Source: a virus
Taxonomy: Duplodnaviria > Heunggongvirae > Uroviricota > Caudoviricetes
Virus record (IMG/VR): IMGVR_UViG_2645727905_000004
Location: 1 to 18,612 of that record
DNA: 18,612 nt
Strand: one strand, 5' to 3'
The notes beneath the pieces were generated by a model. The model saw nothing but the letters and a program-made list of their open reading frames with translations. It ran no database searches and had not been told where the DNA came from. Made by a program: the position numbers and the translations under genes. This document shows, one piece after another, positions 4,210-17,177 of this stretch. Numbering within the stretch: the first letter of the stretch is position 1; each line of letters begins with the position of its first letter.

Positions 4210-4238
4210 AGAAAAAACAAAACCCGCCGAAGCGGGTT
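4210..4238 (-). terminator. rho-independent terminator at the 3' end of the hok transcript
   Basis: Minus strand AACCCGCTTCGGCGGGTT hairpin followed by TTGTTTTTT, about 70 nt downstream of the hok stop. Confidence 0.65.
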
Positions 4239-4306
4239 AAGTGCGGGTGCGTTGAGGATGCCTGACACATCAGCGGTGGCGAGGGATTTCTCCCCCGCCG
4301 GGTCTC

Positions 4307-4462
4307 TTACTCCTCAGGTTCGTAAGCTGTGAAGACAGCGACCTCCGTCTGGCCGGTTCGGATTCGTACCTCGCAGAGGTCTTTCCTCGTTACCAGTGCC
4401 GTCACTATGACGGTTAAACAGATGACGATCAGGGCGATTAACATCGCCTTTTGCTGCTTCAT
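4307..4462 (-). CDS. hokD: Hok-family type I toxin (HokD/RelF-type small membrane peptide)
   Basis: 51 aa MKQQKAMLIALIVICLTVIVTALVTRKDLCEVRIRTGQTEVAVFTAYEPEE, matching HokD as recalled; SD AAGGAG upstream; an in-frame upstream ATG at 4519 gives the 70-aa ORF in the track. Confidence 0.85.
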   Translation of the reverse strand: MKQQKAMLIALIVICLTVIVTALVTRKDLCEVRIRTGQTEVAVFTAYEPEE

Positions 4463-4753
4463 AGCCTGCTTCTCCTTGCCTTTCGGCACGTAAGAGGCTA
4501 ACCTACATTTGTGAGACATAGATTGGGCCTCAGATTAATGTTAAGCGTCGTGCAGGACGCGTAATGTTAACTGGGGCTTTTCTCTATCTGCCTTTTGGTG
4601 TTCATGCCTGAGACAGATAGCCTCAAGCACCCGCAGTCATTCTACTTAACTAAGATTTCCCCGCAAACCGTTTTTATCCCCAGCTGCAAATCGAATACAC
4701 AACAAGTGCTGCCGCCATTGCAATTCCTGTCGTTGTGAATGCCTCCGGCCAGG

Positions 4754-16020: not shown

Positions 16021-16110
16021 TGGCGGAGAGAGGGGGATTTGAACCCCCGGTGGAGTTGCCCCCACTCCGGTTTTCGAGACCGGTCCGTTCAGCCGCTCCG
16101 GCATCTCTCC
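16021..16110 (-). tRNA. serU: tRNA-Ser (anticodon CGA), serU; prophage attachment site
   Basis: Reverse complement GGAGAGATGCCGGAGCGGCTGAACGGACCGGTCTCGAAAACCGGAGTGGGGGCAACTCCACCGGGGGTTCAAATCCCCCTCTCTCCGCCA, 90 nt with long variable arm. Confidence 0.9.
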
Positions 16111-17101: not shown

Positions 17102-17177
17102 TCCTCTGTAGTTCAGTCGGTAGAACGGCGGACTGTTAATCCGTATGTCACTGGTTCGAGTCCAGTCAGAGGAGCCA
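17102..17177 (+). tRNA. asnT: tRNA-Asn (anticodon GUU), host
   Basis: TCCTCTGTAGTTCAGTCGGTAGAACGGCGGACTGTTAATCCGTATGTCACTGGTTCGAGTCCAGTCAGAGGAGCCA; which asn paralogue it is follows from K-12 synteny with mtfA and serU. Confidence 0.9.

Follow-up and report, generated by a model that had tools for sequence, protein, structure and literature searches.

The hok gene of this prophage raises the question whether a hokD-type toxin gene that stands without relBE is governed by mok/sok-like control of its own. We analysed a window of 18,612 nucleotides (the whole stretch of viral DNA under study), which is the left half of a lambdoid prophage. Judged from its sequence, the minus strand carries, at about 4666-4212, a type I toxin-antitoxin cassette of the hok/mok/sok kind that is complete and belongs to the hokD/hokW subtype, and we put the probability that it is a working module, operating as in R1 and Sp5, at roughly 86%. 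An earlier note on this DNA had suggested that the locus may be an intact type I hok/sok system, regulated independently through mok/sok-like control; the presence of all elements, together with a Sok promoter identical to that of sokW, supports that proposal. Earlier publications cover its family and subtype as well as its architecture and function, and the sequence is widespread, so the system is already known; a complete leader followed by hok is a common, previously described state and no exception.

In the window, the gene order runs integrase, exonuclease, repressor, cro-like, CII-like, O-like, DnaC-like, DUF1627 and DUF4406, followed by a 141-aa gene, a 27-aa ORF, the hok module, a 92-aa ORF, DUF968, RusA and Q, with prophage tRNAs and STnc100 after Q. 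The hok module is co-oriented with the early-right operon and sits between the O-like/DnaC-like genes and RusA/Q. Two tRNAs lie downstream of Q (1211-1284 and 1389-1461, both minus strand) and two beyond the integrase end (16024-16110, minus; 17102-17174, plus); the latter two possibly mark the integration site. The STnc100 sRNA, a full-length match of 132 bits, is found at 322-511 on the minus strand, downstream of the Q antiterminator gene. Directly upstream of the module are two reading frames:

5179-4754, minus strand: upstream gene of 141 aa, with matches limited to PHROG families of unknown function
4757-4674, minus strand: unannotated hydrophobic ORF of 27 aa (MTWPEAFTTTGIAMAAALVVYSICSWG), its ATG overlapping the stop of the 141-aa gene (ATGA)

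The relBE-hokD operon arrangement of K-12 Qin is not found here: relB and relE are absent upstream and the full leader is kept. The description of the gene as a stand-alone hokD-type toxin without relBE was thus borne out, the upstream gene being the 141-aa phage ORF. The 27-aa peptide is conserved in 933W (MTWPEAFANVGTVMAVVLVVYSICRWR) and had no match in Pfam. Its ORF was considered as an integral part of the module and rejected, since no more than about a quarter of related loci have it (among 103 related hok cassettes, about 25 carry it upstream).

The toxin gene and its overlapping partner are laid out as follows:

4462-4307, minus strand: hok toxin ORF, 51 aa, MKQQKAMLIALIVICLTVIVTALVTRKDLCEVRIRTGQTEVAVFTAYEPEE, assigned by Pfam PF01848 and by identity to K-12 hokD
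4477-4472, minus strand: hok Shine-Dalgarno sequence, AAGGAG
4519-4307, minus strand: mok ORF from the ORF list, 70 codons (213 nt), in frame with hok and fully containing it
4531-4527, minus strand: mok Shine-Dalgarno sequence, GAGGC, 7 nt upstream of the mok ATG

Hok matched Pfam PF01848 (HOK_GEF) with 81.6 bits, against a cut-off of 22. The likeness to the K-12 peptide that had been noticed before is in fact complete: the protein is identical to K-12 HokD/RelF, the nucleotides of the hok ORF, 3' UTR and terminator are 100% identical to those of K-12 Qin hokD (relF), fbi included, and identical loci elsewhere carry the annotation hokD, WP_000813254.1. The upstream in-frame ATG at 4519, predicted to give a 19-codon extension, was confirmed, MSHKCRLASYVPKGKEKQA plus Hok making 70 aa. 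The length of mok, 213 nt, and its frame are those of annotated mokW, and match annotated mokC also; in R1, the mok frame differs from that of hok. The mok ATG is nearly invariant, with a pi of 0.007 among 93 unique related loci. A recent survey found the coding sequence of HokD to be toxic (bioRxiv 10.1101/2025.08.07.668861). Near the C-terminus, codon 47 of Hok, a Tyr codon, reads TAC and is followed by G (4321-4324, minus strand), which gives a UACG context. UACG is the motif of TadA A-to-I editing, for which the introduction of the same survey mentions a reported Tyr to Cys recoding in hokB and similar editing of the hokC, hokD and hokE mRNAs (bioRxiv 10.1101/2025.08.07.668861).

The contrast that the earlier note had drawn with K-12 hokD is correct. 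Homology to the K-12 locus sets in some 16 nt ahead of the hok ATG, indicating that K-12 carries a truncated version: nothing of the cassette is found there upstream of about -16, tac, ucb, mok and the Sok promoter having been lost, and relBE stands in their place. Downstream, the neighbours are alike, with the DUF968 gene ydfU and then the antiterminator.

We then asked what the sequence upstream of hok contains. An Rfam scan of the whole window matched RF01794, the hok/sok leader, over its full length (4632-4457, minus strand; model positions 1-157 of 157), with a score of 120.1 bits versus a gathering score of 59 and an E-value of 2.5e-27. The direction of the model is the hok sense, its end falls on the hok AUG and its start, at 4632, coincides with the putative 5' end of the mRNA. 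The locus belongs to the hok/sok family, with a toxin ORF, a leader RNA, mok, a tac/fbi lock, alternative pairings and a Sok gene, each of them placed by sequence, structure and homology. No IS element and no frameshift were found within the hok/mok/sok module, and in this copy the paired elements are all intact, as are the start codons, the Shine-Dalgarno sequences and the ORF. A chance resemblance or a decayed relic was rejected in view of the Rfam score, the covariation described below and the intact ORFs. The extent of the transcription unit was predicted as follows:

4666-4639, minus strand: putative hok promoter, called from position and conservation
4666-4661, minus strand: weak hok -35, around TTTGCG
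4644-4639, minus strand: putative hok -10, TAGAAT, 6 nt upstream of the conserved mRNA 5' end
4632-4212, minus strand: predicted hok mRNA at full length, about 421 nt, beginning with tac at its 5' end and closing with the U-run of the terminator
4632-4463, minus strand: transcribed 5' UTR of hok, about 170 nt
4238-4212, minus strand: intrinsic terminator of the hok mRNA, AACCCGC-TTCG-GCGGGTT then a T-run, found by terminator scan

A sigma-70 consensus scan of the same DNA found neither the hok nor the Sok promoter, and a search for terminators found the hok terminator; the promoter calls therefore rest on homology and conservation. Indeed, the -10 TAGAAT is identical in 933W and kept in at least 80-95% of 93 unique related loci. 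The proposal of a 230-bp non-coding leader holds in that a full leader is present; its extent has to be given anew, as the gap between the stop of the 141-aa gene and the hok ATG measures 291 bp, of which the first 84 bp are the conserved 27-aa ORF and about 40 bp more the hok promoter region. The terminator is common to K-12 hokD and most related loci and absent at the equivalent point in 933W. Placed where it is, it would act in a tR-like manner, and early transcription must read through it to reach Q. Among 93 related loci, conservation extends from about 4665 to 4212 and collapses both upstream and downstream, so the cassette of about 450 bp moves as a unit.

To describe the anatomy of the leader, the window was aligned with 933W hokW, K-12 hokC/mokC/sokC and an R1-type plasmid hok, using the element definitions summarized in PMC9841398. 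All four regulatory elements that the earlier note had named for such an alignment, tac, fbi, ucb and dcb, were found at homologous positions:

4632-4621, minus strand: tac, GGGUGCUUGAGG, at the mRNA 5' end; kept in R1 hok, K-12 hokC and 933W hokW
4614-4604, minus strand: partner of tac in the metastable hairpin
4580-4571, minus strand: ucb (anti-SD), AAAGCCCCAG, bound to the mok SD when the RNA is folded at full length and to tac in the open fold
4573-4531, minus strand: target hairpin
4498-4494, minus strand: dcb, GCCUC, with which the mok SD pairs in the open conformation, located within the spacer of the Sok promoter; a helix in RNAalifold and Rfam
4257-4245, minus strand: fbi (fold-back inhibition), CCUCAACGCACCC, complementary to tac with one bulged C

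The possible partners of tac are thus fbi, ucb or 4614-4604. In R1, too, dcb overlaps the Sok promoter (PMC9841398). In the minimum free energy fold of the 421-nt RNA (-167.4 kcal/mol, z = -7.18), the 5' end with tac pairs with fbi and ucb masks the mok SD, through GCC.CCAG with CUG.A.GGC. In the first 48 nt of the hok mRNA, tac is predicted to form the metastable hairpin. When the 3'-truncated mRNA was folded without constraints, the metastable 5' hairpin persisted and the textbook tac/ucb form did not appear, so a constrained fold was needed to show a nearly iso-energetic open form. When the open tac/ucb stem was forced, it cost 10 kcal/mol at full length and 2.1 kcal/mol without the segment of fbi and terminator; this drop upon removal of fbi fits a switch triggered by processing. 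The alternative tac/ucb and SD/dcb pairings and the metastable hairpin are thus present as a thermodynamic prediction.

The comparative evidence points the same way. By pattern scans, 129 unique hok loci were collected from GTDB genomes and IMG/VR, 127 of them with a clear hok ORF. The scan of genome contigs used a 19-nt tac pattern with 17 specified bases over 596 Gb; many matches in unrelated phyla were chance hits, as expected, and were removed by requiring a Hok tblastn match. Across the 127 loci tac and fbi covary, as GGGUGC/GCACCC, GGGCGC/GCGCCC, GGCGC/GCGCC or CGGUGC/GCACCG. RNAalifold applied to 33 diverse leaders recovered the stem of tac with ucb, the first hairpin and the helix of SD with dcb. 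The tac/ucb pairs, which are also part of the Rfam structure, are retained in 31-33 of the 33 loci; in the consensus structure the mok SD/dcb pairs are retained in 31-32 of 33, with 2 compensatory changes, and one pair of a leader hairpin varies between AU, UA, GC and GU.

On the opposite strand, the antisense RNA gene was delimited as follows:

4476-4504, plus strand: Sok promoter, with TTGCCT at 4476-4481, a 17-nt spacer and TAACCT at 4499-4504
4511-4581, plus strand: predicted Sok RNA, about 71 nt, its ends transferred from annotated sokW

The antisense promoter TTGCCT-17-TAACCT suspected from the sequence is real, its position being 4476-4504 and not 4487-4515 as first given. It is the single exact match to this pattern in the window, and none of 200 shuffles matched. 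It is almost invariant among 93 loci (pi 0.065) and, base for base, it is the sokW promoter of 933W/Sp5. In Sp5, changing the sokW -10 from TAACCT to GAGCCG abolished the protection by the antitoxin (PMC8621323); the primer used, YO-421, turns AGGTTA of the sense strand into CGGCTC (PMC8621323). The target of YO-421 is the TAACCT hexamer, identical here, which identifies the proposed antisense promoter with the known Sok promoter. The predicted 5' end of Sok also agrees with that of sokC, whose annotated start is 6 nt beyond the mok ATG.

Sok is predicted to fold (-29.5 kcal/mol, z = -5.64) into a 14-nt single-stranded 5' tail, a long imperfect hairpin at 4525-4579 and a U-tail. The GCGTC-gtgcag-GACGC hairpin described previously is real and proved to be the tip of this much longer imperfect stem. 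As to the direct repeat TAATGTTAA said to flank it, the copy at 4562-4570 stands and the first copy lies at 4536-4544 rather than 4538-4546. The repeats and the GCGTC/GACGC hairpin are therefore the arms and the tip of the Sok terminator stem. Several G·U pairs of Sok would correspond to A·C mismatches on the mRNA side, so the antitoxin has a stronger hairpin than its target. Compared with the Rfam consensus, hokC and R1, the Sok/target hairpin (4531-4573) carries an apical extension of about 16 nt with the GCGTC/GACGC tip, an extension common to about half of the 33 diverse leaders. The loop reads GUGCAG here and UUGCAG or UUGCCG in others, the unusual base occurring in 3 of 93 unique sequences.

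The closest characterized relative is the cassette of 933W and Sp5. A megablast search against phage records returned about 520 bp of approximately 90% identity to mokW/hokW/sokW of 933W, which was annotated in 1999 with mokW, hokW and a 'SokW antisense RNA' (AF125520). The match spans the 27-aa upstream ORF through fbi (AF125520; PMC8621323); besides the identical Sok promoter, the Sok hairpins, including the extension of about 16 nt, are two loop bases apart, mok is equal in length and in frame, and Hok is 92% identical to HokW. Unlike 933W, mok codons 2-5, and with them the Sok tail, read MSHKC here versus MLNTC, 6 of the first 19 nt being different; an intrinsic terminator directly follows fbi here and 933W has none at that point; and the module here lies in a nin-like region, from the replication genes to Q, whereas the 933W copy lies at the distal end of the genome. 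Functional data come from Sakai prophage Sp5: Takada et al. (2021) found HokW to be toxic and the locus with sokW to be non-toxic (PMC8621323). Mutation of the sokW -10 restored toxicity, and sokW in trans partially relieved it (PMC8621323). Both the hokW mRNA and the sokW RNA were detected by northern blot in the uninduced Sp5 lysogen (PMC8621323).

More distant systems share the same plan. In E. coli hokC (gef)/mokC/sokC, the order of elements is the same, mok is in frame with hok and SokC is annotated to start 6 nt beyond the mok ATG, at exactly the distance predicted for the present copy; hokC is a chromosomal locus outside any prophage, its SokC is 59 nt long with a short hairpin, and the K-12 copy is disrupted downstream by IS186. 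In the plasmid R1 hok/mok/sok (parB) locus, tac, ucb, the mok SD, dcb, fbi and the position of the Sok promoter are alignable with the present ones, as is the layout of coupled mok-hok translation, and the folding logic is the same (PMC9841398). The R1 system stabilizes a plasmid, and its Hok protein shares only about 45% identity with the present one; the first hairpin of R1 is about 17 nt longer, and the R1 Sok hairpin is short.

From homology to R1 hok/sok and Sp5 hokW/sokW, which also provides the view taken here of transcription, processing, toxicity and role of this copy, a working scheme may be suggested. A weak promoter would yield a stable hok mRNA of about 421 nt, and while the mRNA is nascent tac would be held in the 5' metastable hairpin. 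In the finished mRNA, tac (4632-4621) would pair with fbi (4257-4245) and ucb would mask the mok SD, so that neither translation nor Sok binding takes place. Slow trimming of the 3' end would remove fbi and allow tac/ucb pairing; the mok SD would then pair with dcb or open, mok would be translated, and the in-frame hok start at 4462 would be translated by coupling to mok. Meanwhile, the constitutive plus-strand promoter at 4476-4504 would produce an unstable Sok of about 71 nt (4511-4581), which has a single-stranded 5' tail complementary to the region where mok starts; pairing of the two would block mok/hok translation, and the duplex would be cleaved by RNase III. For homologues it has been shown that an unstable Sok is made and neutralizes Hok, and that the hok mRNA is stable and undergoes 3' processing (PMC8621323; work on R1 summarized in PMC9841398). 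Once the supply of Sok stops, Hok would accumulate and the inner membrane would be depolarized. Sok could be lost upon loss of the element or, as shown for Sp5, upon prophage induction. The role of the module could be stabilization of the element or, as shown for hokW, help in lysis upon induction.

These two roles call for separate consideration. According to work cited in the recent survey, chromosomal hokA, hokB and hokC show neither post-segregational killing nor a response to rifampicin (10.1101/2025.08.07.668861), and an intact architecture is thus no guarantee of classical addiction behaviour. The intact module may instead be an induction-coupled lysis helper and not an addiction module, with which the same RNA mechanism is compatible; we regard this as a serious contender, at a little under even odds. 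Sok would keep Hok off in the lysogen, and upon induction Sok would be lost and Hok would pre-permeabilize the membrane, resulting in faster release of phage. Consistent with this, sokW RNA of Sp5 is lost once mitomycin C is applied, the appearance of HokW depends on RecA and deletion of the locus halves phage release (PMC8621323). The location of the present module, between the O-like/DnaC-like genes and RusA/Q and on the same strand as all of these, is also in favour: rightward early transcription from repressor/cro would traverse the module in the same sense as hok and meet the Sok promoter head-on. However, the 933W locus, at the far end of its genome, has a different transcriptional context, so the idea of read-through or interference is not transferable from 933W. 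Moreover, a read-through RNA would likewise be subject to the terminator of the module (4238-4212) and to the tac/fbi lock.

Other explanations would deny the module its own activity. If hok had no promoter of its own, it would be expressed by read-through from the 141-aa and 27-aa genes alone, as in K-12 relBE-hokD, and the leader would be a relic. The gene is indeed oriented as the upstream genes are, and the putative hok promoter has a poor -35 and was missed by the consensus scan; yet the -10 TAGAAT and the exact 5' end are kept across loci with unrelated upstream DNA, the mRNA of hokW and the RNA of sokW were both detected in an uninduced lysogen from a near-identical sequence, and a relic would not retain covarying tac/fbi pairs and a nearly invariant mok ATG. 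We therefore consider read-through alone highly improbable. A silent or decaying copy, keeping the architecture and inactivated by point changes like the K-12 chromosomal hok loci, is also quite unlikely in our opinion. Several chromosomal hok loci are reported as inactive (10.1101/2025.08.07.668861), and GUGCAG at the Sok apex holds a base seen in 3 of 93 unique sequences. That base, however, sits in a loop, the paired elements, start codons, Shine-Dalgarno sequences and ORF of this copy are all intact, exact copies of 610 bp occur in at least ten independent genomes and the ORF is identical to that of the toxic HokD.

How exceptional is such a module? The junction of sok, mok and the hok start found in the window occurs in 4284 of 5426 complete E. 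coli genomes (median, 2 places per genome; maximum, 9), a count that at this identity threshold probably takes in related hok loci beyond the hokD subtype; the relE-hokD junction occurs in 1173 of the 5426 (coverage of at least 80%). With these counts (4284 vs 1173), the complete leader form is commoner than the relE-hokD form. Per E. coli genome, hok/sok cassettes are found in up to 9-12 places, and hok has been reported in almost 80% of Enterobacteriaceae genomes, with enrichment in prophages (10.1101/2025.08.07.668861). The copies of 610 bp that are 100% identical in at least ten independent genomes bear 'hokD' as sole annotation; E. coli E200139 and isolates of O166:H15 are examples of strains with 100% identical copies. 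In 40 sampled genomes, the RefSeq features under the leader (4463-4640 and identical loci) included neither mok nor a Sok RNA, both of which are annotated in 933W and in K-12 hokC. The mok ORF and the Sok RNA are missing from the annotation of thousands of genomes because RefSeq labels such loci 'hokD' and leaves the leader unannotated. A literature search for the name 'sokD' returned nothing relevant.

The conservation of the cassette has one marked gap. Window positions 4526-4505 correspond to the Sok 5' tail and, on the other strand, to the spacer from the mok SD to the ATG plus mok codons 2-5. In 93 unique hokD-type cassettes, this stretch is hypervariable (pi 0.37-0.40) and falls into about 14 discrete alleles, versus a pi of 0.06-0.10 in the Sok promoter, the hairpin and hok; with the nearly invariant mok ATG included, the range is 0.01-0.10. 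The tail of the window is the third commonest allele and differs from that of sokW at 6 of 19 nt. That the 5' tail of Sok is hypervariable and sorts into discrete alleles is the sole mildly new point of this analysis, and we met no earlier description of it. Tentatively, the pattern of sequence variation may point to a diversifying specificity determinant that could define non-cross-reacting classes, an idea we consider less likely than not.

The practical value of the present results is a correction of annotation, since the name hokD suggests the truncated state of K-12, though it is the complete module that is usual. As a discovery they carry little weight: among RNA-regulated toxin systems this one ranks with the best studied, and a copy of 90% identity has already been examined at the bench. 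Being the same module at another position in the phage, and with its own terminator, the locus contrasts naturally with hokW and could help to test the induction switch of Hok. Finally, if the Sok tail does define specificity, several prophage hok/sok cassettes could coexist in one genome, each of them still addictive or inducible alone.
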